A DNA stretch of 63,095 bases, the filler included, from Hausera hauseri (taxonomy: Eukaryota): the NCBI GenBank assembly GCA_046269625.1. It is 9 parts of 9 records of this genome, joined end to end, with 100 filler letters (N's around TTAATTAATTAA, not from the genome) between each part and the next. Parts side by side here need not be neighbours in the genome. Positions count along the whole stretch, not along the records: positions 47,334 to 63,095 come from JBJURY010388811.1; 8 more parts are not named here. The stretch is one strand, 5' to 3'. Numbering within the stretch: the first letter of the stretch is position 1; each line of letters starts with the position of its first letter. Shown in pieces: positions 26,658 through 63,095 of this stretch. The notes under the pieces were generated by a model that was not told where the DNA came from, made no database searches, and saw only the letters and a program-made list of their open reading frames with translations. A program made the translations under genes and the position numbers.

Positions 26658-26679
26658 TCAAATAAGAACACTATTTTAT

Positions 26680-27999: not shown

Positions 28000-28009
28000 A
28001 TAAATCGTG

Positions 28010-29125: not shown

Positions 29126-29387
29126 GGGATAATCATTGTATGTACTAGTTTATGACAATAAAATTTAGATTACAATAAAGAATATTAATCAATTTAGTTA
29201 TCATAATCCAAACAATTTCTATGAACAAAACAACAGTTACACCGGCGCCCTCTAAAAGGAGAAAAAATCGTTTCTAAGTAATGTGTATATTGTATCATCC
29301 ATTGGGTAATTCTCTAATCAAATAGTTTGTGCCACCTAGGCTATTCACTCTATCTTAGCCCTATCAATATTACCACCATCCGGGAAT

Positions 29388-31398: not shown

Positions 31399-31498
31399 NN
31401 NNNNNNNNNNNNNNNNNNNNNNNNNNNNNNNNNNNNNNNNNNTTAATTAATTAANNNNNNNNNNNNNNNNNNNNNNNNNNNNNNNNNNNNNNNNNNNN
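31399..31498. other. Artificial contig spacer
   Basis: N44-TTAATTAATTAA-N44. Confidence 0.98.
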
Positions 31499-41209: not shown

Positions 41210-41424
41210 CAGTACTGAAAAATGAAGAATTTCCCGAAAAACAATTGTTAAACGTGAACCTACGAAAAAGAAACGTGCATCAACAGCAGCATCAAAACGC
41301 AACGCTACAGTTAAGCAATTAATCAATTCAGTCCTTCGAACAACAGCAGTGAGACGCAAATTACCATCAAAGTGGCAACGATTATAAACAACTACGTCGA
41401 CGCATCAATATGCACTGATGAAAC

Positions 41425-41753
41425 ATGCGTATCGAATGTTGTCAACCGTACTTTATTGCTTTGCTTAAAGCCCTGTCGAGACATAAAGGAATCATGCTAC
41501 AATCATTACCGCAATTTCTAGTGGACGATTTAATGGAAATTTTGTACAATATTGTTGTTCGTCACGTTGACATTGGTAGTGGAAAGCGGAATTTACTAAA
41601 GTATCGAAAACGACTCATTACCTTGTCAACGCTCGTAGTAAATGACTGAAACGATAGGTCATGTACCAGCAAGACGGAGGATTCATTGGTGCAATTCTGC
41701 CTGTTGTCATGTCATTACTGGGTAGTATCATCGGTGGCAAAAGTTTAGTATAG
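41425..41753 (+). pseudogene. Small conserved Polinton protein with a C-terminal GGF-amphipathic tail (gasderminX-like in adintovirus nomenclature)
   Basis: LMEILYNIV..LLKYRKRL, then after a frameshift QQDGGFIGAILPVVMSLLGSII. Confidence 0.55.
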
Positions 41754-41899
41754 TATAAATAATGAATGTAAGTATATTATGTTTGGTAGTATTGGTGCAT
41801 AGTTTTCATCATTTTGTCCCATTTTACCGAATCTTACATTCACTTTGCGTTCAAATTGTTGCAATACAAACAAAAACCACACCGGCAACACCGACAACA

Positions 41900-42935
41900 A
41901 TGGACGTATGGTTCGGTCCACGTCATCCTGTTGGGTACACTGGAGTCACCAAAGTGGCAGAGATTATAGAAAAGAGTCGACGAAAAACCCGACAGTGCCT
42001 CGGGAAACAGTTAGCACACAGCCTGAAGAAAACAATAAAAAAACGGTTTCGAACTCGTGCATACTATGATCCACGCGTAAATAATCTACGGCAAATGGAT
42101 CTAATGGAAATGATTACATACGCTAACATTAACGATGGATATCTGTACGTGCTGACGTATATTAATGTGTTTAGTCGTTTTGCATGTGCAATTGCCGTCA
42201 AATCAAAACCCGGTAAAGAAATTGCCGACGCTGTTCATACATTAATAAAGCAACAACAACAACAACCACGAAAGCATGCAAAAACGGATTTAGGTAAAGA
42301 ATTCTACAACTCCAATGTTGCATCGGTCTTGAACCGGTTCGGTGTAAACCACTACTTTGTGTTTTCTCAATACAAGGCTGCACTCGTTGAACGATTTAAT
42401 CGACCCTGCGCAGTCGCCTAAACAAATTCTTTACTAAGCAAGACAATAAATGCTGAGTAGATATACTGCCGGATACTATCCATGCATACAATCATTTGAC
42501 ACATCATGGAATCAACAGATTACGGCCGGTTTGTGTAACCGGTGATTTGGACATGTGACTATATCCAAACCAAACACGACAAGCAACACTTAAACGTCCA
42601 AAATATAAAATTTGTGATTATGTACGTGTTTCAAACCTAAGTACAACGTCATTCATCAAAAATTTCAGAACTGGAGCGATAAAATTTTTCAAATTTTTGC
42701 AATCAACAGTATAAAATACCTGCCATGTATGTTTTGGATGATGAAACTGGTGAAAAAATACGTGGTAAATTTTACGAAAAGGAATTTGCTGATGCAGGTG
42801 CTGCCTGAGAAACCCGATGTGTATCCTATTCAGGAAATTCTGCGTTCACGCGGCAAAGGTTTGAATAAACAATATCTCGTCAAGTGGCATAGGTACACCA
42901 TACCGAATTGGATATTTACATCACAGATTGAATGA
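41900..42935 (+). pseudogene. Polinton retroviral-like (RVE) integrase with a C-terminal chromodomain
   Basis: QMDLMEM..NDGYLYVLTYINVFSRF, TDLGKEFYN, KAALVERFNR; chromodomain YPIQEILRSR..QYLVKWHRY..NWI. Confidence 0.92.
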
Positions 42936-43997
42936 GCGTTTACTTAGTACTTGACAGTAATAGAACATCACACCATGACAACAACAACAATAGCAATACG
43001 GCTGAACGGTTTATCATGTACTTGGACCAGGCATTAGATTTACGCTAGGGCGCGTGGGAAGCGGCTCTATCAGAATTTACATTTCAATTTTCACCGATAT
43101 CAATACGTGAGAACAGTGGTGTTTACTTTACTCTATTGGAGAAATCGCCTGCTTCAAGTCGTTTGCAGTTAATCCACGACTCTAAGCGAACATTTCATGT
43201 TCGCAATTATAAGCGGCAAAATTTCCCGATTTTTATTTTTTTATTTAAACAATCGTTTGTTTCTAAAACACAGATATCCGATTGAATTGCAATTTAAATC
43301 AATAGCCGATGCTCAGGCATTGGGTTTTCAATCCGCCAATGTGCGCTTGAAAGGTCCGAATCTAGGTGGACATGTCATAGCTAGTGAAAGAAAATTGAAC
43401 TTTTCCAAAAGCATGAAAACCGACATTATGGTAAACTCGCAAATGACAAAATGAACATTTTACTCGTATACTACGGCATACGGTTTACTGTTGGAATCGG
43501 AAACAGAATTGTGTGTATCCATCAGAGAAGTGGCTAAATTGACTCTGAAAACATTTAGATTAAACGCCGATGATCGTATTTCGTTTACATTACATGAAAA
43601 TATTATATATTTTGCCTTCGATGAACTAATGACACGGAATGTGAGCTTTACGAAACCTGAATCCGGTCAAACCGGCGGTGGTCGAGTTATTGTCGCTAAA
43701 TACAAGCCACGACTATATGGAGCATGTCAGCAAATCAACATTTTAACGGATCTGACCGAACTCATATTTGTTGGCGGAAAACGTAAACAACTATTGGTTT
43801 TTATTACACTGGATTCTGACACGTGCAAAACACCCGTCGAAACAGGTCATGTTAATATCATCCGGTTCATGTATTTATTGTTATCTCACAATGTTGTGCA
43901 CAGTATTTCGATGTATATACTAGATGAATTTTGGAAACCCATTAAATTTCTGTTCGGATCTACGACGCATTTGACGCTGCATTTTCGGCGTCAATAA
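42932..43997 (+). pseudogene. Polinton minor capsid (penton)-like protein, copy 1
   Basis: MSVYLVLDSN..NTAERF..LDL.*GAWEAALSEF; C-terminus ILTDLTELIFVGGKRKQLL..ILDEFWKPIKFLFGSTTHLTLHFRRQ. Confidence 0.8.
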
Positions 43998-44051
43998 TAA
44001 ACTGCGTTATCATCATCATCATTACAATCATCAGTGTGAATAAGTCTTTAC

Positions 44052-45060
44052 ATGGTGTTACCGAGTATTAGTTGCCTGACGACTCGACCGAACAATTCAG
44101 CCATTGTAGATTGGGAGAATCCGATAGATTTATCCGGACAGTGGGAGGTTGCACTGACGGAACTTAACTTTCCTTACGCACCTGTGACATTGAAAGGCAA
44201 TATGAAAATACATTACAGCACATCTCATCGGATCACGGCAAATGAACCATGTCAACTACTATTTGAAAATAATAAACTGTGGGCCAGAACCTCTTATATT
44301 GTTACGAGCGACTTTAATAAGAGCATAAAAGAAGACAAAATCCGTGTTATGCTAAAAGATGGAAAAGCACAGTTTTATTACAAAAGTAAAATTTACTGTC
44401 CACGTCAATTCCATTGAAGTGGCGAGAAATTCGGATTCAAAACTACAGAAATCCAAGCTAAAGCATCGTTGCTGATGATGCCATTGCACAAAATGCGTAC
44501 CTAGGAACATATGTGGACATTATTTCTAGTCGACAAAATATATCAACGGTGCATGATACATTGTGAATCTATTGTGAATCTGTAGCTGATCTCGTTCGGC
44601 ATTTTTAGCTAAAAAGTACCAATACATATTTAGAGCTTTAACGTCAGATACAAATGGCTACATCAAGGATGTGGTCAAAATTTCGTTGGGTAAATCTTTG
44701 ACCATGGTATTGGGTTTCGATAAACGGCAGTTTCAACCGAATAAGACACATGTTGCGACACTTAAACCAAAACTGGAAAATGGACTACATCAAATGTACA
44801 TTTACACGAACGTCACCGAACCGATTTTGGTCGGTGGAGTACGTGTACCGCTACTCCGTGCAATCTGTACGGAAAGGAACAGGTACACTGCTGGTGACAA
44901 TGTCATTGTCAAGCTCGATAATCCAATGTTCATATCCCTGGCATCTATATATATAAACAATATTGAAGTTAAGATCAAATGTGATGCAGGCTACTTTATT
45001 GAATTTCAGTACGGTACTACAACAACTCTAACGCTTCATTTATGTCGAAAATATGATTGA
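44052..45060 (+). pseudogene. Polinton minor capsid (penton)-like protein, copy 2
   Basis: MVLPS..PNN..PIDLSGQWEVALTELNFP; C-terminus MYIYTNVTEPILVGGVRVPLLR..IEFQYGTTTTLTLHLCRK. Confidence 0.85.
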
Positions 45061-45352
45061 TTCTCAAATCGTTTCCATTTCCAGTAAACCTCAGCATGGC
45101 GGTAAACTGCCGTATTTTGTCGGCAAAACTATGGTTCTGGGTGGTTGCGTGTTGAAAAGTATTGGAGCCATGGAAGCAAAAACAGCACAGGCTGTGCTAC
45201 AAGAAAACAAATCGATTTTACCATTGTTAAAGGAACACGCCTTGACCGAAATAAAGAGTGCTGCACCGGGAGTTGTTGAAACAGTCAAAAAACAATTCAA
45301 TGGCAATGGCTTGAAAAACAACGTAGAGCATCATAGAGCTTTTCAACTATAA
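45053..45352 (+). CDS. Small Polinton core-like protein between the minor and major capsid genes
   Basis: QHGGKLPYFVG motif, in the position typical of the conserved Polinton QxGG-LP-F protein. Confidence 0.5.
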   Translation: MIDSQIVSISSKPQHGGKLPYFVGKTMVLGGCVLKSIGAMEAKTAQAVLQENKSILPLLKEHALTEIKSAAPGVVETVKKQFNGNGLKNNVEHHRAFQL

Positions 45353-45380
45353 AGAAACGTCGTCGTATGATTTTATTGGA

Positions 45381-46540
45381 ATGGCATCTGCAAAATCTGA
45401 ATTAAGTAAATTTGACAAGGCCGCGCCACTAGTCGTTATTGGCAGTGCAGCATTTGAAAAAATCTATCCCGTTGATTCTGTTTCAATGGACGACAATATT
45501 GACATTCAATTACTCTACGGTTTGCGCTGCAACAGACACTGTAACACCGGCCAATTACCTTTTTCTCACTTTGTTCCAGCAGGCTTCACTGACTCTAAAC
45601 AATGTTAAAATTGAAGGCAACACCAGTCTATATAGTATCAAAGCTCTCGCTGAAACGGTGTCGAATTACATTACAGTGACGAAAACGTCTCATTTGACGA
45701 AAACCATCGGAAACAATGCTACAGCAGCAAATCGTCAGGCATGGATGGCAGAATCAAAAGCATTTACCATATGTGGACCGCTGTACTTTGACTTTTTCGA
45801 TCAGACAAAATACCTACTGCCTGGTGTTAAAGCCATGATTCAACTCAAACGCTGCGACAAGGTTTTCTGCTTGAAAGCTACAGTTGAAAATCTTAAGCCC
45901 ATAATGAAAATTACCGAGGCACGATTATACGTTCGTCGTTTAAAAGTAAAACCATCTGTGCTCATGTGACGTCGATTGGGTTTGGAAACGCAAAATGCCT
46001 GTTTTCCATTACAACAGACCGAACTCGTGTTTTACACCATACCCAAAGGTTCGACATCGTTCTATAAGGACGCGCTGTTTGGCGACATGCGATTGCCGAA
46101 ATTTGTGCATGTTACATTTCAAATGACTACTCAACAAACAGGCAGTTATACCACTGAGTCAGAAACGTTTACCCATAGCAATGTGAATGACATCAGTTTG
46201 GGCAAGAATGCAGATTTCATTGAGTCATCTGAGCAAAATTTCGAGACTGATAATAATGTTTGCACATATATGCAATCTATCGTGATAAAAATGGGTTTGC
46301 TGAACAAAAATATCAACAATGGAATATCTATGGATTTGTTCAAATCCGCCTATCCGTTCTTTACATTTGTCCTGGCTCCAGATTATGACGTTAAGCAGTC
46401 ACAACTACCTCAACAAGGAAATCTGAGGTTAGAGGTTCACATTTCGAAAGCGGTAGAAGAGTCTACCGTAATGTATATTACGGCGTATCTGATGCCGAGG
46501 TGAAAATAACGAAAAATAGAACCGTCATTGTACGAATAAA
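45381..46540 (+). pseudogene. Polinton major capsid protein (double jelly roll, PY)
   Basis: KSELSKF..EKIYP, PANYLFLTLFQQASLTLN, GPLYFDFFDQTKYLLPGV..LKR, EARLYVRR, RLPKFV and QQGNLRLEV; frameshifted, with a stop. Confidence 0.88.
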
Positions 46541-47333: not shown

Positions 47334-47598
47334 TCATATTTTCTGATAATTTCGCATAATCTCGAAATATGGTGTGTGGTCTTTGTTGATTAGAAATAGT
47401 TAAGATTAGATTTAACTTCAAATGAGGTGTTGGGGTTATTTGTGCCAATAAACATAGTTTATACATTGGTAATATACATCGGAATTTATTCTTAAATAAT
47501 GTAGTGCCCATTATGATTGTAAAAATATTGATAATTATAAGTAGAGCCTTCTCATGGCTCGTTGGAGTATACTTATTATTTTTTATTAATAAGGCATT

Positions 47599-50500
47599 TC
47601 ATGACCATATTGGATCCATTTGATTCTTTGGGTAATTCATTTGTGGAAGTGGCTGTCTAATATGATCGGTTGCTAATTTTCTTCCGGTCTCTGGGAATTT
47701 CACTGTCGATTGTACCAATACATTCGTCATACATAGCGCTAATATACGTGAAAATAATACCGCTTTACTGAGTTTTGGTTTCATGCCCTAATAGTTTATC
47801 GAAACAACTTTGATACTGCGTTGGTTATCCGGTTTGGTAGAATTTTCATTTGTAATGGGCTCTTGTTTTGGTGTGGGATTTGAAATATTTGGTTCAGTAG
47901 AGTTTTTATCTGTAGCAGATTCGTCTTTTGAGATGGACTTTGAAATGAGTTGACTTAGTTTACTAATATTTTTATCTATTTTTTATCAAGATTCCTTGTC
48001 TCTGACGGGACCTATAAATTTATTTTTCTCTTTCTTTAAATGTTGACTTATATCGGTAATTTGTTTATGTATTTTTGTTAGATATTTTAAACAAGGCATT
48101 GTAGTTACTGGAATTTCTTCCTCTGGCAGATCTATTAAATAATCTGTTAAATAACCTCCTTCGTTCTGTAACAGAACAACGTGGGTCAATCTTAAATAAG
48201 CGGTGATTCTGCTGGTCCATGTGATGTAAATTACTCCATTAGGGTTGGCTCAATATTTTTGAGCAAGTACATCTAATCTTGCATCATGTAACTGTACTGA
48301 TCGGTGGTAGATTTCTATGGTATTTAATTGTGTTATTCTAATTATTTTTTTGTCAGTTACTTTTATTCCTTTAGGTTGGTCTAGTTTCCTATTGAAACTA
48401 TGAAGGAGAATTTGGATCATATATTGTCTGATCTCTTCCGTATTGAAATCAGGTGCTAAGACAATGTTATTAATATGGAAATGATCTACCATTTGTCGTA
48501 ATAGATTTTGTTGTTCATATTCTTTAAGGTAATAAAAGTGATCCAATTAATCGTCCTTTCTGGTATATTATTATGGTTCAAACCTAGTTCCAATACAACT
48601 TAGTATATCCATCTGTTGATCTCTGGGGTTGGTTCTGATATCGTGTCTAGGCATTTACGCAGAAGTTTTGTCATAGAAACTTTTCTATCGGTAATTTTTG
48701 TTGACGGTAGTTGCATATTTTGTGATTTGTTTGTACAAAATTTTTAATTGGGATCTTCTTCTGTGATCATTCCTCTTTAGATTAAAATATCTGAATAATT
48801 ATCCGCACATCTTCTCATCATCTCATAGTAATGAAAATCATAATGTGACATGGGATTATAGCATCGGTATTTTTCCATGTCAAATAAATAATTTAGTGTA
48901 ACCTGTTTTTCTTTTGAGATTTCGAGGTTTTCTTCTTCTATACAATGGATAAACTTCCTTTGCCATTCTCTTTTTATAGTTTGTTCTCTTTCTAATTCAC
49001 TAAAATAATGTAGTACGTAAGGATCGTGTTTCGATGATTTATGAATTCGAGTTGGAGTTCTATTAAAGGTTAATGGAAAATCTTTGTTGACTTTATCCGA
49101 AGGTCGATTGAAACCTTTATTGTAGTCGCTATTTATCGTTTGTATCAACGTATTATAACGAGCACATCTCGAATAACCTTGAAATTCTAATTTATTGAAG
49201 TTTTGTTGAAGGCTATTAAACATGAATGCATTCGTACATATTGTTGAATGGTTGGTTTATATATTTTTACATGACGTAATAACCGGATAGTCCAAATTTT
49301 ATCTTTATATTCTTCTTTATTATAACCACGTCTCATGGCCCATCTAGTAATTTTCGTATCATAATACTTGCATATTCGTATTCTATAAATTGTCTCGAAG
49401 GATTGTCCTTTTTCGTAAATTTCTTTTCCCATTGGTAAATATGGGGTGACAATTTGGGTTGGTTCGGGCATTATGCACATACCTACTCTTTGCTCTCATC
49501 CATTCTCTGTCAAGGTGTATGATTCCTGATGCTATCTTATCTTCTAAGTATTAATCGTATAGCATTTCGACTTCATCTCGTAATTCTTCTAGCACTTTAA
49601 GCTTTAATTTTACCAACGTTTTGTAATATTCGGTTTTCTCGATTACATCTCTAAAGGGTTTTAACTAGTTCCTTTGTGAGGGATTCGTCTTCAATCCGGC
49701 TTCCCATAGTAACAGGTCTATCCATATGTGTTTTTTATACTCTTTTGGGTCATTTTTTACATTTTGCATTTTTCGCGTCCAAAGTCCGTTAATTACGTGG
49801 TCAGTGCCACAATCCTATACTAAGTCGTTGAGTATTTCCATGTCCTGTGTTGAAATTTCCGATTGTTTGGGTTTATGCAAAGCTATATTAAGCAGTTGGT
49901 AAACAAATGTATTCCACGTGGTAAATGATGTAAAAACGCCTGCATGTAAATTGAGAGGATTGGTTTTCATATACTGCTGAGCCTCTAAGGCGTAGGCATC
50001 GCCTTGTGCGAAGTATTGCCTATCAACGTTAAAAACGTTTGTTTTTAAATAGTGATAATCTGGAGATTGTCGTTTATCTGGGAATCTAGTAATTTCCCAT
50101 AAGAATAAACGCATTCAGGTCTGCCTATAACTCATTTCTATGTCTGGTACTATTGATATTTCTCTAGCTGGTTTTATTTTAGTGCTGTCGGTTTTCTGAT
50201 CTTGTATGTACTGTTGGCGAAGGGTGTGTATGATTTCATTTAGGTTTTGATGTGGATATTGTTCCTTTAGCGTAGTAATTTCTCGTTCAATGTTCAAATT
50301 TTGGTTTAATGGTTTGTTTAACCTTCGTAGAAAATACGTTATTTCATGTACTTCTATTGATCGGTCAACATCATTCTTCTTGTAGTGTTTAAATCTTTTT
50401 ATTATCGATGATATATTTCTGTATGATGAGTTATCCCAAGTGTTTCCTTTTGCTATTTCATTATTTCTTATTGCAGCGCATGATTTTAACAGTAATAATT

Positions 50501-50890
50501 TATCTTCTGCTGGCATTTCCTCCTAGGTTTTACCAAATTCCATTAGTATGGTGTCTATGACTGGTTTAAATGTATTGTTTCCCGAAATAATATATCGATC
50601 TATTGCTATTCGATTGAGTTCCATTTGAACTTCTTTGTTATCTATCCAAGGTAAGTAGTCGAATTCAATTCTTGGCCATGTACGAGTTTTAGCAGTTTCC
50701 TTTATTGGAACAGTCGATGGTTCCTTTAATGATTGTTGTGTACAAGAATTTTTTGACTATAGGTTCTAGGTTATTTCTACTTTGGGTATATTGTAGTTTT
50801 GAATGACCCTTGGGGCTAATATTGTAGGAATGGCGCCTAAAAACGCTTCTCTATTTGCTCGTTTTTTCTTTTCCCATGCTGTCTTTTGAA
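47599..50890 (-). pseudogene. Distal part of the 3' extension, unknown helical protein(s)
   Basis: ORF fragments 50115-50516, 49815-50114, 49187-49480, 48777-49223, 48250-48546, 47986-48189 and 47599-47784; no recognisable motif. Confidence 0.55.
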
Positions 50891-51868
50891 TCAAATTAAT
50901 TCTTTTAATTGCTCGACGACATATATTGCTAATACATGTGATATGAATTTCACATATTTTAAATAATCTTGTTTACTTGAACTGACTGGTTGTGCAGCAC
51001 AGTTTCCGATTAAACAGCATATTACCCGGGTAGATAGAAGTAATGGATTTAGTATACCGTAGTTTCCTTGGTCTTCTTCGTAATTAGGAGGAGGTAATTG
51101 TTTGGTTGTCCTTTGATAGTATCTTACTACTTTGCAACATATATAAAATGCTACTACTATTAATGCTACTACAGTGCTACTGGCTAAACCAATTATAAAC
51201 ATTAGCAATAAAAATGATTTGTAATCAACAACTGGTAAGGTAAGGATGACTGTATATTCATAATGGATTGCTTCAGTTGAAGTTACATTAAGTGCTGACA
51301 AGGCAATACGTATTGCTCTTCGTTTGTAAATGCATGGTGACTTGCCTGAAACATCTTCATACTTTGAAGGTGGTTTTTCATTTGCTGTTTCTACGTCCAG
51401 CATTAATTGCTCTCTTCTTACTTCTCTCCGTATTTTATAAGACCTTTTGATTAATATGGCGATATAACTAATTAATGCAAGGACGAATGATATTGGTAGC
51501 ATTAGTGATATTATGTCCATCGTTTGATTGTGTGCATATGCTTCTTTGTTGCATGTCCTGGCTTTAACTATGGGTATTAAGCTGCTTCCTTTCATAAATC
51601 CATTGATTGTTGGTAATATGTCTCGTCTAGTGAAATTGAATCGCTTATATCGCTTGACTTTCTTGTTGAAGAATATTATCCCTCCTATTATGAGACTAAC
51701 TAAGAGTGTCAATATTACTGCAGAAATAATGTATTCTAGTATGGATATTGAAGGGAATATTGGTTTGTTTGCTGGTACTGTTATGTTGGTAGTCGTTTTT
51801 GCGTTAGCTTTCTTAATTAGTAATGATGGTATAAGTATTGGTGCTGTTAGAGTAAAAGGTTTAGTCAT
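50891..51868 (-). CDS. Multi-pass segment with repeated signal-peptide/AxA/TM units and a PPxY motif
   Basis: ..LLIKKANA-KTT..TM-KK; ..IPIVKA-RT..TM-KR..PPSKYE; ..VTSTEA-IH..TM..PPPNYEE; ..LIGNCAA-QP.. Confidence 0.65.
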   Translation of the reverse strand: MTKPFTLTAPILIPSLLIKKANAKTTTNITVPANKPIFPSISILEYIISAVILTLLVSLIIGGIIFFNKKVKRYKRFNFTRRDILPTINGFMKGSSLIPIVKARTCNKEAYAHNQTMDIISLMLPISFVLALISYIAILIKRSYKIRREVRREQLMLDVETANEKPPSKYEDVSGKSPCIYKRRAIRIALSALNVTSTEAIHYEYTVILTLPVVDYKSFLLLMFIIGLASSTVVALIVVAFYICCKVVRYYQRTTKQLPPPNYEEDQGNYGILNPLLLSTRVICCLIGNCAAQPVSSSKQDYLKYVKFISHVLAIYVVEQLKELI

Positions 51869-51877
51869 AAATTTTAT

Positions 51878-53026
51878 CTAATCATTGATTCTGTCTCGTT
51901 CAATTGACTTTCTTTGCGCTATTATTCTTTTCCTTTCTAATTTAAAGTTTTCGGCTTTTTCATTTGGTATGAGTAGTAAACAAAAAATTAAACGGTATCG
52001 AATAGTATTTATTCGGCCAGATAATCCTTCTGCGTATACATTACAAAATGAGTATATATCTTGGTAATCCTGTTTAGAGAGTTCTTGATTTAATTTTCGT
52101 TTTAAATATTTATTCAATAAAATTTTAATTTCTTTTTCTTCTATCACTTGTAATGCTTCTTCATCGAGTTTGTCTTTTAACGCTATGATTGAATAAGCTG
52201 TGATATATTGTGTATAAATATCACCTTTACACTGTTGTCTTAGCTCTAATCCGAACCATTCATACAAGGTTAGATGGTAATTGATTACACTATACATTTC
52301 ATGGTCATCAACGTAATATTTTATGCCAGGTAATTCGTTTTTGATTTCTCTTTTAATGTGACTGACTGGCAAAGGGGCTCTATCACCTCGAAGAAATCTT
52401 GTCAAAAATGTCCGTTCAGCTTTACGTCCTATAAATAAGGGTTCATAGTCCATGCTTGATCCGATTATAAGTGACTCATCAGAATTAAAATCATGGCTTA
52501 TATTTAATAAGTCGACTGATCTTATTTTTTCCAACAATTGCGGTATAGTTGATAGTTGTAACTTATGCATAATTAACAGTTCGTGTTTTTTATTTCCAAA
52601 GTGTATAGATTTTATTCCGCATCTATAATTCCATGCCTTGGCTAATTCATGCATAGGGCTATACCATGAAAGCTTTAAACCAGATACATTCATAATTTTA
52701 TCAAATATTATTAATCCTGAGTTATAGTTGGTTCGTTCGTTTTCGTAACGTTGTCTAAATGATCTACCTTCGTGCAGTGTATCCTTAGAAAGTTGGCATT
52801 GGAAGCTGGTGATTAATAGTAAGTTATCTCTCACGAGATGAGTGGTAGGATTATATCTTGATTCTTTCTGGTATTGTTCGAAATATTTCTTGTACGTGTC
52901 GAGATATGAGGTTATAGGTTCTCTTCTAATGTGACTGGGTGTCTCCCATAAACGATTTGCGTATTGAATACTTTGATAGATAGTTGTGTTATTTCTTCGA
53001 CAGACTTGTATTCCATTCTGGTACAT
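51878..53026 (-). CDS. Unknown protein containing repeat-domain copy A
   Basis: 382-aa ORF; YEPLFIG..ERTFLTRFLRG..FGLEL..AYSIIALKDKL..KILLNKYL..GLSGRINTIRYRLIFC. Confidence 0.7.
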   Translation of the reverse strand: MYQNGIQVCRRNNTTIYQSIQYANRLWETPSHIRREPITSYLDTYKKYFEQYQKESRYNPTTHLVRDNLLLITSFQCQLSKDTLHEGRSFRQRYENERTNYNSGLIIFDKIMNVSGLKLSWYSPMHELAKAWNYRCGIKSIHFGNKKHELLIMHKLQLSTIPQLLEKIRSVDLLNISHDFNSDESLIIGSSMDYEPLFIGRKAERTFLTRFLRGDRAPLPVSHIKREIKNELPGIKYYVDDHEMYSVINYHLTLYEWFGLELRQQCKGDIYTQYITAYSIIALKDKLDEEALQVIEEKEIKILLNKYLKRKLNQELSKQDYQDIYSFCNVYAEGLSGRINTIRYRLIFCLLLIPNEKAENFKLERKRIIAQRKSIERDRIND

Positions 53027-53618
53027 TAATAGTGCAGCTCTTTTGGTTGAATCAGATTGTTTAATTTCCCTTTACAATTACAAATGAGTTACATAAGCTT
53101 GTCTGAGATCGTTAATCATCATCCTTTTGTCGGGGTTTTGTTCGAGTATTGCTACTGGGTTTCTGTTGTTTAATGGTAATTTGGCCAAACGGTTGGCTAC
53201 TGTATATAGCTCATATTCTTCAGTTGATAATTCATGACGGTCTTTGCGAAGCTTGTTTATGTCGCGAAGTATTGAAATTATTTTGTTGGTAGTTAAATAT
53301 GGATGTTCGGCTATTGATCCTACTCCTTGTTCTATCAATGTTATGATTATTTGCGTTTCCTCTGAGAGTACGTCAAATGGGGAATAAATTTTTTCCTTTG
53401 TGTAATTAATAATTTTTTCATTCTGTGATATTAGCTGTATATAATGGCGATTTAGCCTGGGCTCCTTCGCATAAGTCTCTAAGTTTAGTTGGACTGGGCT
53501 ATCTAATTTTAACCATTCTGTTGTTTAATCAAAATTCTTAATAAAGATTTGACTTTCTAGTTTATCTTCTTGTAGTCTTTTTCTTTCATAACGCTCTACT
53601 TGTTGAGATAGTGATAAG

Positions 53619-55359
53619 TGTGATGCCCACCGCGGCCGGTGCCCTTCGGCCCATTTTGGTTGGGCAAGGCCGGGCGTCCGATATAGCCGCGTCCGATCCA
53701 TAGTCGGGCCCGATCTTCCGCCTCGAGAATTTCGCCCGCTGAACTTTCAAGCGATATTCAAAATATTTTATTTTCAGTTATTTAATGCCACCGATTTGTT
53801 TGTTTGGTTAGAAATGGAACATTACTTCCAATGATTTCGTGTTTATTTCCATATTTGAAAGTCCCACGTACTCTGGGATAGTTTTGTTGTTAATAGCTTA
53901 TCCTACACCGAATTATGTTTGGCCTACATGCAACGTATCGTCGGTTGCTTTGATTTGCCAAATCACATCATTCTCGGTTTTCTTCCAAAATGTCTTTCTG
54001 TCAGTTGCATTAGTTGTATGTAGCAGTCCTGGCACTATTATGGACGACCGTAAACGATCTGCTGTTCTGTGCACTATTTACGTTAAATTGACATTTCATC
54101 CGACTGAATTCAATTTTTGTCATAAAGAATTAGTGCTCGTCAAACAAATGCACATCCATTCAATTATCAAATACGACAAACGACAAAAACAAAAATGTTG
54201 ATACATACCGAACACAACTAGAAAAGAAACTGCATAAAAATGCTTTCACCGATGCCGTTACTTTCGTTGAAGCAAAACCGGAGTCAAACGTCTCTATTTA
54301 GCTGCCTGATTAATTGCTTTTAATATTCTATATCTCATGGTTGGATACCATGCAGCATTTCTTGCTATTTTCATTGGTTTTGTTTACCCGTCTTATTGTA
54401 GTGCCAAAGCAATTGAAACAAAAGACGGTGCCACAAAACGGCTGACGTATTGGGTTGTTTACGCTACGTTCAGTCTTATAAAATTCTTTACGGACATTTT
54501 CCTGTTTTGGATTCCGTTTTATGCCTTATTGAAATGTATATTCCTTATTTATTGCATGGCAACAACAAATTGGAACGGTTCAGTTGCAATTTACTATGGA
54601 ATCATTCGACCGTTCATTCTTAGTCATGAAAAGAAAATTGATTCGGAAATTTCACACACTGCACGAGTCGTTGCAGATTCTGCTGAAGAAGCCTAGAGAT
54701 CATCCAACGAGTACAAAACGGAATAATCAAATATAGTGTTCTATTTATTTACAAACAGATAATAATGTAATAAACGGACAAAATTTTGACTCCCACTTGT
54801 CCAATTTTGTGTTCTAACGCTTGTTATTTTTTGATTATTTAAAATTAGTTTGTACTTGAATTACTTAACATTTATTGTTTTGATTTATCGTAATAAAGTC
54901 TGGCTTTACATCCAAACTATATATGTGGTCTGTAATTTCATTTAATCACCGTGTATTCCCTTTTAAGCTGCATGTGTGTATGATTATTAGAAGGTCATTG
55001 GCAAAAAAGAAAAAATTAAATTATGGAGTTTGCTTTTCAATTTAAATCTTATTTCTCCATTTTAAAAAAAATTTGTTTTCAAAGTTCATTGTGTGATCAT
55101 ATTTCGATTGTTACCAGGATCTTACGTATTCGACTCATTACGTGCCAAGTTAAAAAATAACGGAAATTTTGGATTATTTATTCTGTTATCAAATTCTACT
55201 AATCCCAATATTTTTAGTGATTGAATTCAAAATAAAAAGGACGGTTCTAATCGCGACAAATTTGTTCGGAGCTAGGTTATACACCTAATTTACTTTTCGT
55301 GGAGAAAAGAACAAGGCAACATCTGGATTTCGCTTATTCAATTAATATTATAAATAACA
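53619..55359. mobile_element. 1741-bp TGT...ACA insertion (solo-LTR-like) with 5-bp TSD ATAAG
   Basis: ATAAG at 53614-53618 and 55360-55364. Excision restores the open minus-strand frame ..QNTVPNPY|LSLSQQVERYERK.. Confidence 0.75.
54190..54696 (+). pseudogene. REEP5: Intronless REEP5/DP1/Yop1 (TB2/DP1-HVA22 family) copy
   Basis: LEKKLH.KNAFTD..GVKRLYL..IGFVYPSYCSAKAIETK..LTYWVVYATFS..LFWIPFYALLKCIFLIYCMA..NGS..IY..IIRPF; frameshifts and a stop in the N-terminus. Confidence 0.88.
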
Positions 55360-56119
55360 ATAAGTATGGGTTTGGTACGGTGTTTTGGGATTCACTTCAC
55401 CCTATTCGCCTGAAGCAATATTCGCTCGTGGGATGAATATTTTCTTTATTTCTCTCGGGTAATAGAGACTTATTAATTGATATTTCTTTTATCGTTGCCA
55501 ATGTTTGACGTTTCATATATTTCAGTTTGATAGTTGGAACTTATGTTATGGTATGTCCTTCAGTTAGGATAATCTCTTCGTCCTTACTACTATTTGATTG
55601 TTTAAATTTCTTCATGAGAAACATTAAATTTACTAGGATCAGTAATAATAACCATATAGATGAGATTTCTTGCTTAGTACCAATTGTCGTAAATGCGGCT
55701 TCAGCCGTTCCGAATAATATGAATGGTATAAAAAGTAATATTAATGTTGAGTAAGTAAACCCGTTAATAATTTTGCCAGAGTGACTTTCGTCTAGCGTTA
55801 ATAGGATGTCCGTATTACTTTCCTTGTTGATATATGAATCCTTCTGCTATATTTGCTGTGTTATGTTGATAGTTTCAGATTTATCCTGATTGATATTACT
55901 ATTGTCCATTGTCTGGTTTTTATGATTGTTGGTTTCCGTTACTACAAATGGGTTATGATCGTCATTTCTTTTTATGTCGTTACAGTTATTATCGCTATGT
56001 AGTGTATCTTCTTGTTCTTCCAATTTGGATAATTCTTCGTTACAGTGTATGGGTAGTATGTGTTTCTCAAAGGTATTCAATCGTCGTATATTTTTTGTCA
56101 ATTGTGGTGCCGTTTCTTT

Positions 56120-57631
56120 TTCATTATCTGGTTTTAGTCGGCAGACATTTATTAACCTTTCCGTTCTTCTTTAAATGGTTTATCTATTTCTTTGTCGTCG
56201 TTTAATTCGCAAAATATTAGATTGTAGCGTATGTCATTTAATTTGCCTGAAAATCCACTTGCATTCACGATGTCGAATTTATCTACATCTTCGTAATCAG
56301 AAGGGGTCAGTGGTGTTTTTTCTTCTCAATTCAGATAATTATTCCATAATATTCGTGCTTCTTCTTCATAAGCATCTATTTCATCCTGAGTAAGTTCGTC
56401 TTTTATCGCCATAAGTGTGTATGTCAACCAACAATTGATCATAAAGGAGTCTGTTTGGACCTTATTTATTAACTCTTCGCCGTAATTTTTAAATAGTCCC
56501 AGACATCTATCGACCAGTTTGGCAATTTTTTTTTGGAAGTTTATTTGCTATTAGTTCAGGGAAATTCTTTAAAGGAGATTCATTAAATACGCTGCGGGAA
56601 ATAATAATGGTATTCCTTTTAAGAAGCTAGTAATCAGCACACGTTCTCTACGGCTTCCGACGAATAAAGGTTGATATTTAGTTTTGTCTCCATACACTAT
56701 GCTTTCTTCGTGGGTTAGTCGGTATTTTTCTATTAATGGGTCGAACGACCAAAGGCAACGTATTATTTGTAATGTAGATTGGGTCTCTAGTCGAGTTTTT
56801 AACAGTGATTCATGTTTTGGACATATGGGTTTGTTGATTGGTGTCCCCATTACATCATCCCAAGTTTCTATCATTATATTGGTAGGTTGTAACCATATGG
56901 GTTGTAGGGATATTTCCATTAAAATTTGTTGAAGCAAGTAAAATCCCTCGTAGTATACCTTAGTTCGAAAATCATTCGATGTGTAGGGTAATGACGTATT
57001 GGTTGAAATTTTATAAGACGTATACAGGATGCTAGCTATCTGTAGCAATTGGTATTTATAATCCGATTCTTTAAAGTTTATTCCTGTTTCTTGTTTTATC
57101 CGATCGAAATATGGTTCATATAGGACTATATAATTTTATGAAGTCTTTCTGTTCCTCGTTGGGTAATTAATCTATACTACCTCCTAACAATAGACAATTA
57201 ATAATGTCTCTGTCCCATTCATGGGGAGTCTCTCCGAATATACAAAGTGTGGTAGTATGCTGGTCATCGTGAAGCATGGTGACGGGTTGGTCATCTTTTG
57301 GTTCGATGTCGTTTAGCCATTGTTCGGTTCCATTTGCTATAGGGTGTAACTTTATTGTGGTGTTCAAAATATATCGGTCGTGCGGATATATTTCCATTGA
57401 ATGGGTGACGAGATGCCGTATTGGTTGATATACTAACCTATGTATTACTCGGTCTAATTCCTCTATGACTGACGAGAGACTGCTTGGATTTGTTCTTAGA
57501 GTGTTTATTACCCTAGAGTAAGGAATTATCTCGTTGGCCATGGCATAATTGTAGTCACGTAGAGGATCTATTATGTTTGCTACGGTTGCTAGAATTGTGC
57601 TAGTTTCGGGTGTCATCATTACTGACGTCAT
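56120..57631 (-). pseudogene. Unknown protein containing repeat-domain copy B
   Basis: YQPLFVG..ERVLITSFLKG, then after a frameshift RCLGLFKNYGEEL..NCWLTYTLMAIKDEL..EARILWNNYL..GFSGKLNDIRYNLIFC. Confidence 0.7.
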
Positions 57632-58135
57632 GTTAAGATCCTCTTGTATTGTTTCTGTTTAATCTGATCCAAGTAATTGTCCAGTTCTATATGGTTTATA
57701 TTCGCTTCCGCTCTTGTTTAGTCCATCCATGGCGTCTTGTATGGGTTTATGTAATTATTTCCATTCTTTAGTATTAGTATAGTCTTTTGGAATATCTCTT
57801 TGGGACAGTAATATTTTTGTTTCTTTGTAGGGGGTTGATGTTTTAATTCGATATTTCTTCTATCTTTGTATTGATTTGGATATGATACCCTCTTTTCTTT
57901 ATGAGAGGAACAGTCGTGATGTACTTTTCCTTTCTGATATTCTCTTACTATTTGTATTAGACTAAAATAATTGTCATCATGTTTTACTTGTTGGTGATAT
58001 GGTTCTTCAAATGATTGTCCGTCGAGTGAAGAGTTCGGCTAGACCTTTTTGGTTACATGACCTAATATTCCATTTGTCAGTTATGTGTGTCCTATTAGGT
58101 GTCTTTGAATATTTAACATGGCGGAAGCTATATAC

Positions 58136-59883
58136 TAGGGCGAGTTGTATTTATGTTCCAAAATGGTTTTGATATAAATTAGATCTTTACGTTCTATCTT
58201 GAAAAGTTCTGCTATCTCTTGATCGTCGTCCAACATGCAAATTAGTAGTCTGTAACGCAGAGAATTTAGATTACCAGACAATCCTCCGACGTTTACTTGT
58301 TCCAATCGACTAATTCTTTTGTTATCTTTTCTAGTTAAAAGAGTGTCTCTATCTCTACGTAGATAGTCATTTTATAGTATTCGGGCTTCTTCCTTTTCCA
58401 TCTCCTCTATTTCTTCTTCTCTTAGTTCGTCCTTTAAAGTCATTAGCGTATATGTTAACCAACAATTGACTGTAAACGAATTCTTTATTTTCTGGTTTAT
58501 TAATTCTCCGCCAAAATTCTTGAATAGTCCGATGCATCTTACTCCTGCTTCATCGGCTCTTTTTTGGGATATATAGGCATCGCATAATGGGGATGTCTCT
58601 TGCAATAAGGTAAGTATACTTACAATAGGGATTTATGATATCTCTTATCTTAATAAATGAGTAAAAAAGATTCGTTGTTGTGGGCTTTCAATAAATAGGG
58701 TTTTATACCTCATTACATCTCCGTCAAGGGAACAATTCAATGTCAATGTCTTCTTAATGTAAGCATTTTTATCATCGCACGTCAGCCCGCTATTTTTCCA
58801 GTTCCAATCAAAAGTATGGACGCGATGTATCAATTCTGATAAGGTGTGTGTGCTGTGGTTTAGATTTGACATTAATTGTGTTTCGCAGATTTCCTTTAGA
58901 GTCTGTGCTAATTCTCGATAGTCTGAGTGTTCTTCTGTCGGTTGGTTAATGTAAAGGGATTCCAGTGATTTTCCTGCATTATTTTCGGGGAATTCGTTTG
59001 TTATGCAATCTGAGATGTTAAGTGTTTTAGGTTCTCTTTTATTGGGATGTCCATTCCAACTAAATGTTGGGATGCGTATTATCTTCCAGGATCCATTTGT
59101 TTTATCTTTATCACTAAAGAATTTACCTAACATTAGCAACGAGAGTAACCACAATAATACTGAGGTCCATGTGGGACTCAGGTGTTGTGATGTAGTCTCA
59201 GCTGCGTTTGCTATATTGATCATAAATAGAAAACATATTCCCATGAAAAGTAACGTTCCCAATGGGAACGTAGAATAACCCTTTATTCCTGAAGATTCTC
59301 GTTTTTTATCCTTTTCTTGAAGGGGTTGGATATGCATGGCTCTTGTCTCGTTAGAGATTTTATCCATATATTTAATTCTGTTTCCTGCAAATTGTAGTTA
59401 ATCAATTTTCATCTACTGTTTTGGAGGGAGATAGCTATCTAAGGGTTGTTCCATTTTTCTATTCCAAGCTCGTTTTACTTCTTCTACTTCATTAATGATT
59501 TCTCGACCTCCTATATTTAGATTATGGTGTTTATAAATTTTTAACACCCGGCTGGCTGCCACATAATAATGGTGTTGTGATTTTCTTGTACTGGCTAAGT
59601 CGGGAATTGTATAATATACCTCTTCACAACTTATGTTTATTAGAAGTTTATCCAGTGGGGACAATGTATTGGAATCCAATTTCGGATCTTCGCAAATTAG
59701 TTTCATTACGGGCCTATATTGTTCGTCTGTTATCCCGCACTTTTCGTGATATTTACCGAGAAAATCGCTTAATTCCATTACACTATTTATGGGTCTCTTG
59801 ACTAGTTGCAGTGCGTGATTAATAGGCTCTGAATTGGCTAGCAGAAAATTTTCCAATCGGTGTCGGTTTGCAGCCTCTCTCAT
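58136..59883 (-). pseudogene. Unknown protein: TM pair plus repeat-domain copy C
   Basis: One frame with isolated stops: ..MINIANA-AETT..TM..YKTLFIE..QRIFFTHLLR*..RCIGLFKNFGGEL..NCWLTYTLMTLKDEL..EARIL*NDYL..GLSGNLNSLRYRLLIC. Confidence 0.7.
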
Positions 59884-60572
59884 TAAAGGGAGTGGTGGTA
59901 GATTTTTCCCTTTTGTTGAGGTAATTCGAGGTAATTTTGTTCAAATAATTTGACTTTTTTGCATTGTACTCGCCCACCGCGGTCCGATCTCATTGTTCTA
60001 ATTTTGTTATTTATTAGTGGTTTATTGATTTCATCAGGCTGGTATTTTTTAATTTTTTCTTTTAGGAGTCTAATATTTTCTTCTGCCTCTTGTAATTTTT
60101 CATTTATAGTGCTATAACGTGCAGGTGTTTGGAATTTATTTGTGATTTGCAATTCTATCAAGTCGGGATAAATGGAAGTTGTTGATACTGGTCTTGGTAA
60201 GTCTTGTAAAGAATTTCGTAATGGTTTCTTCGGAATACTCGTTATGATAGATACTGAATAGGTGGCCATTTTGGTTATTGAGGGTAAGGGCACTTGTCTT
60301 CTTCTATGGTCATTCGAAGAGAGATTAACTGCTTCCTCCTCGTCGCTTGTCATATTACTTTGAAACACATAATATACATATATCAACAATAGTACAACTG
60401 CACTACTCCAAGAGTTAGTCGTGGTAGTGACTGAGGTTGGTTGGGCGTTCGCGCATCCAAATATAATGAGTAATATTAAGGTTATCAAGGTTATGGTAGA
60501 CAAATTAAAAGGATTTCCGAAGATGATTGTGGGGGTATTGGTTGAAGGTGTTTCTATTATTCGAATTTGCAT
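59883..60572 (-). CDS. Signal-peptide/TM pair followed by a coiled coil
   Basis: FNLSTITLITLILLIIFGCANA-QPTS..SSAVVLLLIYVYYVFQSN..EEE, then INEKLQEAEENIRLLKEKIKK. Confidence 0.6.
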   Translation of the reverse strand: MQIRIIETPSTNTPTIIFGNPFNLSTITLITLILLIIFGCANAQPTSVTTTTNSWSSAVVLLLIYVYYVFQSNMTSDEEEAVNLSSNDHRRRQVPLPSITKMATYSVSIITSIPKKPLRNSLQDLPRPVSTTSIYPDLIELQITNKFQTPARYSTINEKLQEAEENIRLLKEKIKKYQPDEINKPLINNKIRTMRSDRGGRVQCKKVKLFEQNYLELPQQKGKIYHHSL

Positions 60573-60602
60573 TATTCTTTGAGCTAGTGGGGATTCTGTA
60601 TT

Positions 60603-61100
60603 CTATTCAGTCGTTTGCTTTAATGTAACATAATATAATGAGGGTGGAACAGTCTCTTCCCCTGGTGCGAACCACCACTGATCATTAGTCTGAGGATTTG
60701 TATCTTGGTATCCTTCGCAATTGAATACAATTGATCTTCCAATGACTTTGAGTACTGCTCCTATCAGTTTGGGTAGTACATCTAAACCAATAATAAGATC
60801 AGAATACGACTCTTGTGGGTTGGCGTAGCAAGTAACATCAATATATCCTATGGTTAAATCTAATTTTCCGCACGCATCGGGTATATAATGAGTAATTCGT
60901 CTATATAATCGTAAATTTATGCGGGTCAATGTGGTAGTGATATCGAGTTCCGCATTAACATACTTACCGTATACTTTGACTAATATTGGTGTTAAGAGAG
61001 GGTAATCGTTATAGCTTTGAAGATAATGCATATTATATAATAATTCTAACCCTTTTATTTCGTCATCTAATTCGTTTACGTTTTTCGGTACTTCTCCCAA
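60603..61100 (-). CDS. Degenerate retropepsin-like domain 2
   Basis: ILVKVYGKYVNAELDITTTLTRI (cf. ALLDTGA)..GKLDLTIG..SDLIIGLDVL. Confidence 0.6.
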   Translation of the reverse strand: MGEVPKNVNELDDEIKGLELLYNMHYLQSYNDYPLLTPILVKVYGKYVNAELDITTTLTRINLRLYRRITHYIPDACGKLDLTIGYIDVTCYANPQESYSDLIIGLDVLPKLIGAVLKVIGRSIVFNCEGYQDTNPQTNDQWWFAPGEETVPPSLYYVTLKQTTE

Positions 61101-61109
61101 TCTTTCTTT

Positions 61110-61470
61110 TTTTCCAGTGAGTTTGTAGCTACGTCTATCACGATATCATAATATATTGGCGTATCTCTACCTATGATACAAGGGATTGTAGTATTTTGTA
61201 GTATGTGATACAGGATCTTTGATCGTTTACTTTTCAATTTAGTTAGGCAGTGACTACGCCTATTACTTTTAAATGGTTTCCGTTTATTAGCTTGTGATTT
61301 ATTTCGCTGCTTTCGATTAGTTTCAATTTCAGAGTTTCCATCGTAGTTTTGTTTAAATAATTTTTTGCGGTTCCTTTATCTACTCTTGCTTCTATTTCAC
61401 CTTTATTTATGGTTATCGTTGTGGTTACAGTATTATTTGATCCACCGCCTATGAATGTAATCGTCGTATT
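61110..61470 (-). pseudogene. Retropepsin-like domain 1, directly after the integrase (not in the ORF track)
   Basis: ITINKGEIEARVDKGTAKNYL..INGNHLKVIG; after a frameshift YHILQNTTIPCIIGRD..DIVIDVATNSL. Confidence 0.7.
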
Positions 61471-62614
61471 CTTGTCTTAAACTGCATTCTGCTCCTTAAT
61501 GGGTATTTACACGATGGTGTTTGTTCCAATTTACATTCTTTGGATGTTGGTCTACATCGTTGCGCACTTATCCAAGAAGTTTTATTAGGGTTGGATAGAT
61601 TCTGTAGTTCTAAACTTGATTCAGTTATTTGTAGTATTTTGTATGGTCCTTTGTAAGGTAATTTTAGTTTAGGGCTTTTGCCTGGTTTACAGGTCTCATC
61701 CAATATGTTGACTAGATCTCCAATTCGATATATATATATATGGGGTTTTGCCTTTTTATCATATTGATGTTTATAATTTCTTGGTGGTATTTAATTTTTA
61801 ATCCGGCTCTGATCCATGCTTCTTGTAATCTTTCTTGTAGAATTGTTACATAATCCGGTTTCTCCATCATTTGTGATTGTGGCTGTCTATATTTTAAATC
61901 AATTGGCACAATATCTCGTCTACCATACAGTAAAAAGAATGGTAATTCTCAAGTTGTTGTATGGAGACTTTGTCGGTAGGCATATACACAAGTTTTTATA
62001 TACAAATCCCAATCAGCTGGATGGTCATATGGGTAGCTAGATATCATAATTGAAAATTGTTTATTAAAGGCTTCCACTGGGCCATTGGCTTGAGTATAAG
62101 GTGAGATAAGTTTGTGATTAACTCCTAATATTGTTAGTACTTTTTCCATAAGTTCGCTGCAAAAGGTGCTTCCTCTATTGGATATCACTGTCATTGGCAC
62201 TTAATATTCAAATATTACGTCATCGACTAATCTTCTGGGCATAAAATCCGTGGTTCGATTTACTATTGGCATTACTATTGGAAATTTTGAGTGGTAATCT
62301 ATTGCTGTAAGTACACATGTATTTCCTCTGGCGGTGGTTGGTAATGGACCCACTATGTCAACACCTATACAAACAAATGGTGATGCTAAAACTGATACCG
62401 GTTTTAGTGGTGTTTTTCTTGCTTGGATATTTCCTCTTCTTTGTGAACATACGTGACAATTTTTACACCAATCATTCACGACATCTGCTATCTTTGGCCA
62501 ATAATACTTTTGCTTAAGTCTGCCTAGTGTAGCTTTATAACCTCGGTGTCCGCCGAGTTGTCCGTCATGGTAGTGTAGTAAAAGTTTTATGCGAATGTGT
62601 TTTGGTACAACCAT
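61449..62614 (-). pseudogene. Gypsy-type integrase (H2C2, core, GPY/F)
   Basis: HDGQLGGHRG..YYWP..CHVC; PFVCIGVDIVGPLP..IDYHSKF; SNRGSTF; QANGPVEAFN; KLKLPYKGPY; YPLRSR. Confidence 0.93.
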
Positions 62615-63095
62615 GAGTAAATCTTAGCTCTCTTCATAGTAGATATTTCCTCTATCCATTTTATATTTATTTTTGCTCCCTTATTTATTTTGGCTATTAT
62701 GAATTTTCCAAATTTCTTTGTCCTTTGCTTGTTCTTTGGCTATAGCTTCGTGCGTAATTGGTATTGTCAGGACTGTGTGCATCTCTTCGCTGACCTCCGC
62801 ATTATCTACTTCATCTATCATAGCTTGAATTAGGTCAGTCATTTTGTAATATTCGTATAGAATGTCTTCAACGAACGGATCTTTGTGGTCACTTTGTTTT
62901 GTGTTTCTTTGGTTATCTTTGTTCAATGTTTGAATAATTATACTTATTAACTGATCTGTATCCGTAGTGTGCTTTTTTCGTATTGTCTTAGGTACGTCCG
63001 GATTAAGTTTCTGTGAATAATATTCTTTTAAGTCGTGCATGTCATCGTATTCGGGATTAACTCAGTCATTATAGTTTTTGTCAATGTCATTTTCT

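Follow-up and report, generated by a model that had tools for sequence, protein, structure and literature searches.

Gypsy-type elements with added coding capacity

No group stands closer to retroviruses than the Gypsy elements, and how these come by accessory functions and by the means to enter cells is not settled. In the known cases there is one Env or a short open reading frame (ORF) behind pol, or, in the planarian element Burro, a stack of domains before the protease; here we describe a Gypsy-type element from Hausera hauseri in which more than 4,100 codons (the extension, below) lie past the integrase. It is a real and unusual giant element, known from one decayed copy and one source run. 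The copy was found in a window of 63,095 nucleotides, by which we mean the whole stretch of DNA that was analysed, filler included.

Burro (GYPSM1) is a giant Gypsy element with thousands of copies and an ORF1 of 4,873-5,140 residues, which is described as having MATH, BCL2, BIR, ankyrin and SUMO-like domains as well as an F-type env between Gag and protease (PMC6431247). The Hausera element resembles it in being Gypsy-type and very large, and apparently in having a multi-domain polyprotein with accessory domains, but the extras of Burro precede the protease whereas those of the Hausera element follow the integrase (PMC6431247, whose account of ORF1 does not thereby exclude 3' ORFs in Burro). 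An earlier interpretation of our locus made from the DNA alone (the sequence-only reading) had ascribed multi-ORF 3' extensions to Burro, and in this it departs from the same account, which places the extra domains in ORF1 before the protease (PMC6431247). By Pfam we saw none of the Burro domains (BIR, BCL2, MATH, ankyrin, SUMO-like, env) in the extension; the region upstream of reverse transcriptase (RT) lies outside the window.

Errantiviruses, which are Ty3/Gypsy elements found across animals, carry one Env of F or gB type (PMC13524379). As in the Hausera element, coding for a membrane protein with a signal peptide and a transmembrane helix lies behind their pol, but theirs is a single Env with a large ectodomain as described in PMC13524379, whereas the Hausera element has four to seven membrane hairpins within more than 4,000 codons. 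The hairpin loops are 10-27 residues long, and no Env of F or gB type, with its large ectodomain, was found. In env-less Gypsy elements of the MDG1 group, sORF2 is described as a stand-alone myristoylated protein of 63-107 residues (bioRxiv 10.1101/2025.03.14.642691). The Hausera hairpins share a small ectodomain, a transmembrane helix and a basic patch with sORF2 and with proteins like those called FAST (fusion-associated small transmembrane), but sORF2 stands alone whereas in the extension the helices recur within long reading frames that also encode large soluble domains (compared with the description in bioRxiv 10.1101/2025.03.14.642691). We found no stand-alone ORF of 60-210 residues with an N-terminal MGxxxS/T in the extension; the loops of 10-27 residues, with at least three K/R in the 15 residues after the helix in five of six tails, do fit the sORF2/FAST-like pattern of a 10-50-residue ectodomain and a basic patch, a combination that is not specific to fusogens. 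Finally, bdelloid long terminal repeat (LTR) elements have non-env ORF3s of ~200-600 residues, and the folds described among their ORF3s are known ones (DEDDy, GDSL, env; PMC5408684). They too have captured non-env and transmembrane ORFs behind pol, but the single ORF3s described there are an order of magnitude shorter than the Hausera extension (PMC5408684). No account of an element of this kind was found in the literature searched, a scope that did not take in Repbase, Dfam, subscription papers and supplements.

The integrase and the coding stretch behind it

The window consists of nine short contigs with eight artificial spacers (N44-TTAATTAATTAA-N44) between them, at 4434, 12074, 19419, 24442, 31399, 35496, 40412 and 47234, and contigs that stand side by side may come from different places in the genome. 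The Gypsy integrase and its extension are on the minus strand and lie entirely within the last contig (47334-63095). The zinc finger and catalytic core of the integrase (61715-62623, minus strand) matched PF17921 (E 3.6e-19) and rve (E 0.023); this part is decayed, having two stops and one catalytic acidic residue that is not conserved. The C-terminal module (61452-61790, minus strand), which is 41% identical to residues 312-400 of the homologue P0006 (E 6e-16), carries YKGPY followed by a YPLRSR tail. Decayed as this copy is, all three marks of a Ty3/Gypsy (Metaviridae) integrase can be recognized: the zinc finger of H2C2 type, the rve core and the GPY/F tail. Upstream, a minus-strand segment (62627-63095; ORF 62684-63061) had no notable Pfam match and would, from its position, be a Pol linker. 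The window stops 470 bases upstream of the integrase, and RT, RNase H and Gag would fall beyond its end.

Behind the integrase, ORF pieces tile the minus strand up to the contig edge at 47335, and with a later insertion left out this coding stretch amounts to 12,368 nt, or 4,122 codons. When stops and frame changes were allowed at a cost, the cheapest minus-strand reading path cost 29 and 26 for the two halves of the extension, as compared to 102 +/- 6.5 and 102 +/- 6.6 for dinucleotide-matched random sequences (30 per half), corresponding to z of -11.3 and -11.5, while the plus strand of the same halves gave z of -2.2 and 0.5. Coding-strand A content was 40-41% in the integrase and in both halves of the extension (35% in the insertion). 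The sequence-only reading had proposed about 12 kb of same-strand coding DNA behind the integrase, which the path test (z about -11) bears out; it had also called this DNA uninterrupted, which it is not, for the path crosses 35 stops and shifts frame 10 times. There is coding at 47599, where that reading placed the end, but it goes on to the contig edge at 47335, so the 3' end of the extension is outside our view. No long direct repeat of the kind that LTRs would give was found within the contig, and both ends of the element lie beyond it.

That the extension is part of a repeated element was seen in run X1, the only run containing the sequence, which may be the source sample; no RNA data set was listed as containing it. 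Across the integrase and extension 25,162 X1 contigs align, most of them 80-95% alike, and all 30 of 30 bins are covered, which agrees with the earlier view of the extension as part of a Gypsy element, and of a repeated one. Depth was summed and is expressed relative to the least covered bin, which is inside the insertion, and is thus not a copy number: it was 895-2,181x over the integrase, 94-1,579x at 58.9-61.5 kb, 10-69x at 55.2-58.9 kb and 24-161x at 47.3-53.6 kb, so that extension bins overall were 10- to 1,579-fold deeper than the insertion interior. The bin holding the second protease-like domain and the first hairpin (1,579x) matches the depth of the integrase bins, and only 1 in 100 aligned X1 records continues into unlike sequence. 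Every part of the extension is therefore repeated, and its modules vary in the number of family members that share them, the drop at 55.2-58.9 kb indicating that many members are without the modules there or have different ones. In this one run the sequence is thus dispersed in multiple copies, as Ty3/Gypsy elements are, and because of this repetition together with the integrase features we assign it to Ty3/Gypsy: we read 47335-62623 as one decayed member of a many-copy Ty3/Gypsy-type family, with at least 4,100 codons of the element's own coding sequence past the integrase.

The coding stretch is broken by a 1,741-bp sequence at 53619-55359 (plus strand), which did not behave as coding in the path test (z 1.4 and -1.1). 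It has TG...CA ends and a 5-bp duplication (ATAAG), is skipped by three X1 contigs, and the frame of the homologue P0001 is open across its site; it is a later solo-LTR-like insertion. The sequence-only reading had already set a 1.7-kb insertion apart here. Inside it lies a REEP/TB2_DP1 gene piece (54310-54693, plus strand; PF03134, E 4.9e-22), which, together with the kinds of transposon in the window, suggests that the repeat-rich host is probably an invertebrate animal. The first ~550 bases of the insertion are highly repeated in X1 (depth 1,339), while from the REEP/TB2_DP1 piece onward it is near single-copy (depth 18-34), and this seems to be a host mRNA fragment captured within the LTR.

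Domains and reading frames of the extension

The extension begins with a retropepsin-like domain (domain 1; 61079-61476, minus strand, with a frame change inside) that matched Pfam gag-asp_proteas at E 0.045. Against a profile of eight Gypsy proteases, taken from homologues found in the analysis and from the window, its first half scored better than 500 of 500 shuffles and its second half better than 494 of 500; it has D-K-G in place of the usual D-[TS]-G. For a second candidate (domain 2; 60666-61028, minus strand) the neighbours in the Atlas were retropepsins: the first match scored 0.95 with 151 of 256 features shared, and the ten best named matches were all to retropepsin families, on thresholds that are not calibrated for part proteins. 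The local profile was negative for it. Hence, of the two protease-like domains that the sequence-only reading had named, the first is well supported by the profile and the second only weakly.

A hydrophobic hairpin recurs through the extension. Hairpins M1 (60360-60515), M2 (59115-59270), M3 (55610-55775) and M4, the clear member of the membrane modules M4-M7 (50894-51877), all on the minus strand, have in common a hydrophobic, signal-like helix, a small-x-Ala site, a Thr/Ser-rich loop of 10-27 residues and a second, transmembrane helix. The site is A-N-A in M1, M2 and M4 and A-E-A in M3, and the loops have 10 (M1, Thr/Ser), 12 (M2), 10 (M3) and 27 residues (M4, with a sequon); M5-M7 are weaker. 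Signal peptidase prefers small residues at -3 and -1. By chance, a small-x-Ala site would fall within the 26 positions preceding a helix with a probability of about 0.19, and in all four hairpins with one of 0.0014. Hairpin M3 is conserved in P0001 (31% identity). The membrane modules thus resemble signal-peptidase substrates, consistent with a processed polyprotein, and to this extent M1-M4 agree with the processed polyprotein that had been suggested. A budding system, also suggested, drew no comparable support: the tail of M6 ends with Cys-Cys and a PPxY motif, the only one, where 0.4 are expected by chance over the whole extension. In five of six hairpins the tail has at least three K/R inside 15 residues. 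Since no large ectodomain is seen, the products would not be classical Env.

Between M1 and M2 lies a soluble segment (59300-60360, minus strand) with a short coiled coil and a predicted helical domain, whose match to HR1 (E 0.006) was below the cut-off, and a search with 61145-59886, the region of the second protease-like domain and M1, found no homologue among 4,191 candidates. There are also three related helical domains, all on the minus strand. Repeat 3 (51881-53524, ~550 residues) and repeat 2 (56155-57664) hold the full unit of ~500-550 residues, and repeat 1 (58138-58719) just its last ~190. BlastP between ORF pieces gave E-values of 1e-9 to 1e-16, which upholds the earlier claim of three copies of one domain with the proviso that repeat 1 is partial (~190 of ~550 residues), and when the repeats were read through with X the E-values were 1e-19 to 1e-42. 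The N-terminal part of repeat 2 matched repeat 3 and P0001 so well that 0 of 1000 shuffles equalled it, and repeat 3 is 44% identical to P0001 over 348 residues. Between pairs of repeats the proportion of nonsynonymous differences (pN) was 0.33-0.48 and that of synonymous differences (pS) 0.69-0.75 (0.33 and 0.74 for repeat 1 against repeat 2), and second codon positions were best kept. With pN well under pS and the second positions best kept, the repeat protein was evidently under purifying selection. No fourth repeat turned up in the extension, where the best extra matches had independent E-values of 0.03-0.12.

AlphaFold models of the repeat from four- and three-row alignments were all-helical and unreliable, with pLDDT (predicted local distance difference test) of 38.5 and 45, and Foldseek and VIA-align searches with the pLDDT-45 model gave no E below 0.001 and a best Z of 6.2 over 56 residues, which is uninformative given so poor a model. 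Atlas matches of the repeat to Aq_aa04/transposase-fragment clusters (0.92-0.93) were set aside for low recognition and few shared features, and a BCL2-like identity, suggested by a likeness of motif, found no support. A single X1 contig joins repeat 1 (58363) to repeat 2 (56297) in register within one codon; this joint may represent a family variant with another number of repeats, or a further paralogue.

The extension ends, as far as we see it, with ~1,100 mostly hydrophilic residues and then a hydrophobic helix near 47550 (47335-50870, minus strand; coding z -8.0). These residues have 1.3% Cys and 11 sequons as against 9.3 expected, and we found in them no notable family match and no furin-type site. 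The large domains of the extension likewise have 1.1-2.2% Cys, sequons at expectation and no R-x-[KR]-R. Pfam gave no Env or fusion-protein match (no F- or gB-type Env) anywhere in the extension, a negative to be read with the caveat that the topology of the last 1,100 residues hangs on the weak module M7.

When we searched 1.84 billion representative proteins by phmmer with the 899 residues of 53590-50894 (repeat 3 and M4-M7), P0001 was the only match, and for ORF 51881-53071 it was the one match among 2,586 candidates. Parts of the extension found nothing of note in PHROGs, NCBIfam, PDB sequences or phage genomes by tblastn, and no polymerase, helicase, capsid or glycoprotein match; scans of viral contigs showed no relative, and a metagenome scan with the repeat gave 344 pattern matches of which 0 were confirmed. 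The extension is thus without a known family beyond retropepsin and, for the part searched, has one homologue in 1.84 billion proteins.

Breaks in frame number 17 stops and 6 frame changes in one half of the extension and 18 and 4 in the other, or 3.8 and 3.7 per kb, similar to the integrase at 3.1 per kb. P0001 is a 622-residue open frame that holds the soluble segment, hairpin M3 and repeat 3, and it spans five stops of the window copy as well as the insertion site. When the repeats are aligned, seven of the stops that interrupt repeats 1 and 2 stand opposite amino acids of the other repeats. Other copies showed 19 indel differences, 12 of them listed, and six of these 12 fall at frame junctions, where 1.3 are expected (P 7e-4; junction windows padded by 35 bases), one of them between the integrase tail and the first protease. 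From P0001, the repeat alignments and the indel clustering, decay accounts for at least 12 of the 35 stops and for several frame changes. M1 and M2 lie mid-frame, in open frames of 239 and 250 codons. Our best reading is that the extension was likely first read as one or two long frames. The one or few very long ORFs of the sequence-only reading are thus upheld as far as many breaks are copy-specific decay, but there may be more than one ORF, as a stop followed by Met and a signal-peptide-like stretch at 51868 could mark a real second one.

Relatives, processing and competing explanations

The integrase search returned 26 long proteins and 12 metagenome loci. In a tree of 34 integrases, from which the short loci L008-L012 were left out and which includes no sequence known as Burro, the window integrase forms one clade with P0006 and L001 (support 100/93), to which it is 45% and 43% identical, respectively. 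In both of these closest integrases, which come from metagenomes, the Pol frame continues beyond ...RYNLRS into a signal-like helix, a domain of 330-470 residues and a transmembrane anchor, that is, Pol runs in frame into a signal-peptide-led membrane protein; their extensions differ from that of the Hausera element in being ~420-530 residues long and type I with one lumenal domain. Since both are extended in frame, a membrane-bound extension seems to be a trait of this clade and the giant cargo particular to the window element, which suggests a small clade that shares a signal-peptide-led, in-frame extension and has exchanged its cargo.

L001 (2-5437) is intact-looking and encodes RNase H and integrase, then in frame a signal peptide, a ~470-residue domain and an anchor. 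Next comes an ORF of 709 codons, for which neither Pfam nor PDB gave a match and part of which may be exonuclease-like; ten 64-bp tandem repeats and a Gag-like ORF on the opposite strand follow. Other Gypsy Pol proteins, P0019 (Tetranychus urticae), P0030 and P0031, have in-frame tails of 630-790 residues past the integrase with hydrophobic helices, and in-frame fusions of Pol with membrane proteins may be commoner than described.

We consider it probable that the extension is the element's own giant polyprotein, or polyproteins, cut by signal peptidase into membrane-anchored accessory proteins. Translation of Pol would carry on beyond the integrase tail and into the extension, as in P0006 and L001, and a retropepsin would release the integrase. 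Each signal-like helix would then enter the endoplasmic reticulum and be cut after its A-x-A site by host signal peptidase, leaving a series of products, each with a lumenal stub of 10-27 residues, then a transmembrane anchor and a large domain in the cytosol, and a signal anchor at the C-terminus; three of the cytosolic domains would be the paralogous helical domains. The products would most likely work from the cytosolic side of membranes, helping in particle assembly, in egress or passage between cells, or in control of the host, and this role, at which we can only guess, is the least supported step. Hairpins cut by signal peptidase are typical of the polyproteins of flaviviruses and bunyaviruses. 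If the processing model were true, a retrotransposon would have converged on this strategy of RNA viruses and would carry several new protein domains kept under selection. A bolder form of the model, which we think rather doubtful, is an undescribed giant Gypsy lineage with a single polyprotein of more than 5,000 residues, cut in the manner of an RNA-virus polyprotein, by its own tandem retropepsins and host signal peptidase, into membrane-tethered proteins of new fold that make up a membrane compartment or give the element a way from cell to cell without an envelope.

Several observations weigh against the processing model. The hairpin scan is a hydropathy-plus-motif rule and not a signal-peptide predictor, M5-M7 resemble M1-M4 by eye but their proposed sites fail that rule, and no soluble domain of the extension has an assignable function. 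Domain 2 fails the Gypsy protease profile (232 of 500 shuffles were equally good), and neither retropepsin-like domain has the canonical D-[TS]-G, both retaining the Asp in this decayed copy. The P0006 and L001 tails have no match to the extension by tblastn, nor detectably to each other. No listed X1 piece is longer than ~700 bases, so that in other copies the integrase is linked to the distal modules through successive short overlaps and by no spanning record, and depth is only 10-28x in parts of 55.2-58.9 kb. As to the frames, the indel clustering rests on 12 of 19 rows with junction windows widened by 35 bases, about 23 of the 35 stops carry no evidence of being decay, and the stop before Met 51868, with its 23-residue signal-like peptide, may be a genuine ORF end from which a second ORF starts.

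The last of these points belong equally to an explanation that we regard as unlikely, namely a row of separate accessory ORFs made from spliced or subgenomic RNAs, like rotifer ORF3 or the accessory ORFs of Burro, with the helices as ordinary anchors. The stop and Met at 51868 and the ~23 stops without decay evidence would suit it, as would the depth that differs module by module and the separate 709-codon ORF behind the extended Pol of L001; moreover, separate ORF3s are the rule among the bdelloid elements described in PMC5408684. Against this, P0001 joins the soluble segment, M3 and repeat 3 in one frame, M1 and M2 are inside open frames, and indels cluster at the junctions.

It is improbable, in our judgement, that the hairpins make up a set of small fusogens like FAST proteins or sORF2, freed from a polyprotein for envelope-free spread from cell to cell. 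Stubs of 10-27 residues and basic patches do fit the size and charge criteria given in bioRxiv 10.1101/2025.03.14.642691, the products of M4-M6, at about 60-100 residues, would be short, and a Cys-Cys pair is present in M6. However, a myristoylation start (MGxxxS/T) is impossible once signal peptidase has cut, the basic residues past the helix are also explained by the positive-inside rule, and the cytosolic domains of the M1-M3 products would have 350-1,000 residues as against the 150-residue limit given in the same preprint (bioRxiv 10.1101/2025.03.14.642691).

We give still less credence to the idea that the retrotransposon took up the entire polyprotein gene of some RNA or DNA virus and has borne it since, for which the flavivirus- and bunyavirus-like hairpins and the lack of host-like domains or introns in the extension might be cited. 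Neither the searches for viral polymerase, helicase, capsid and glycoprotein nor the viral contigs yielded a relative, the extension begins with retropepsin-like domains and shares the composition of the integrase, and an internal triplication with saturated synonymous sites implies long residence in the element. An accident, with unrelated nested insertions or a host gene beside a truncated Gypsy integrase, is hardly credible: the genome is repeat-rich with nested elements (one insertion is proven) and no single record spans the locus, but the extension keeps to one strand, one composition and a uniform decay, every bin of it is far above single-copy coverage, no target-site duplication or termini were seen besides those of the single insertion, and variant contigs bridge the junction of integrase and protease.

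Other contigs of the window hold further mobile sequences. At 40868-46503 (plus strand) a decayed integrase (rve, E 1.6e-11) is followed by ORFs with an internal duplication; this may be a Polinton/Maverick with ATPase and capsid genes. At 26106-28324 (minus strand), beside an inverted-repeat element (28434-30211), a cluster of ORFs without introns encodes a BIR domain and four or more RING fingers; it is possibly viral or transposon cargo and, being on another contig, cannot be linked to the Gypsy extension. Two more decayed Gypsy-type gag/protease fragments, of other families by their Pfam protease matches, lie at 31450-33538 (minus strand) and 20300-22084 (plus strand).

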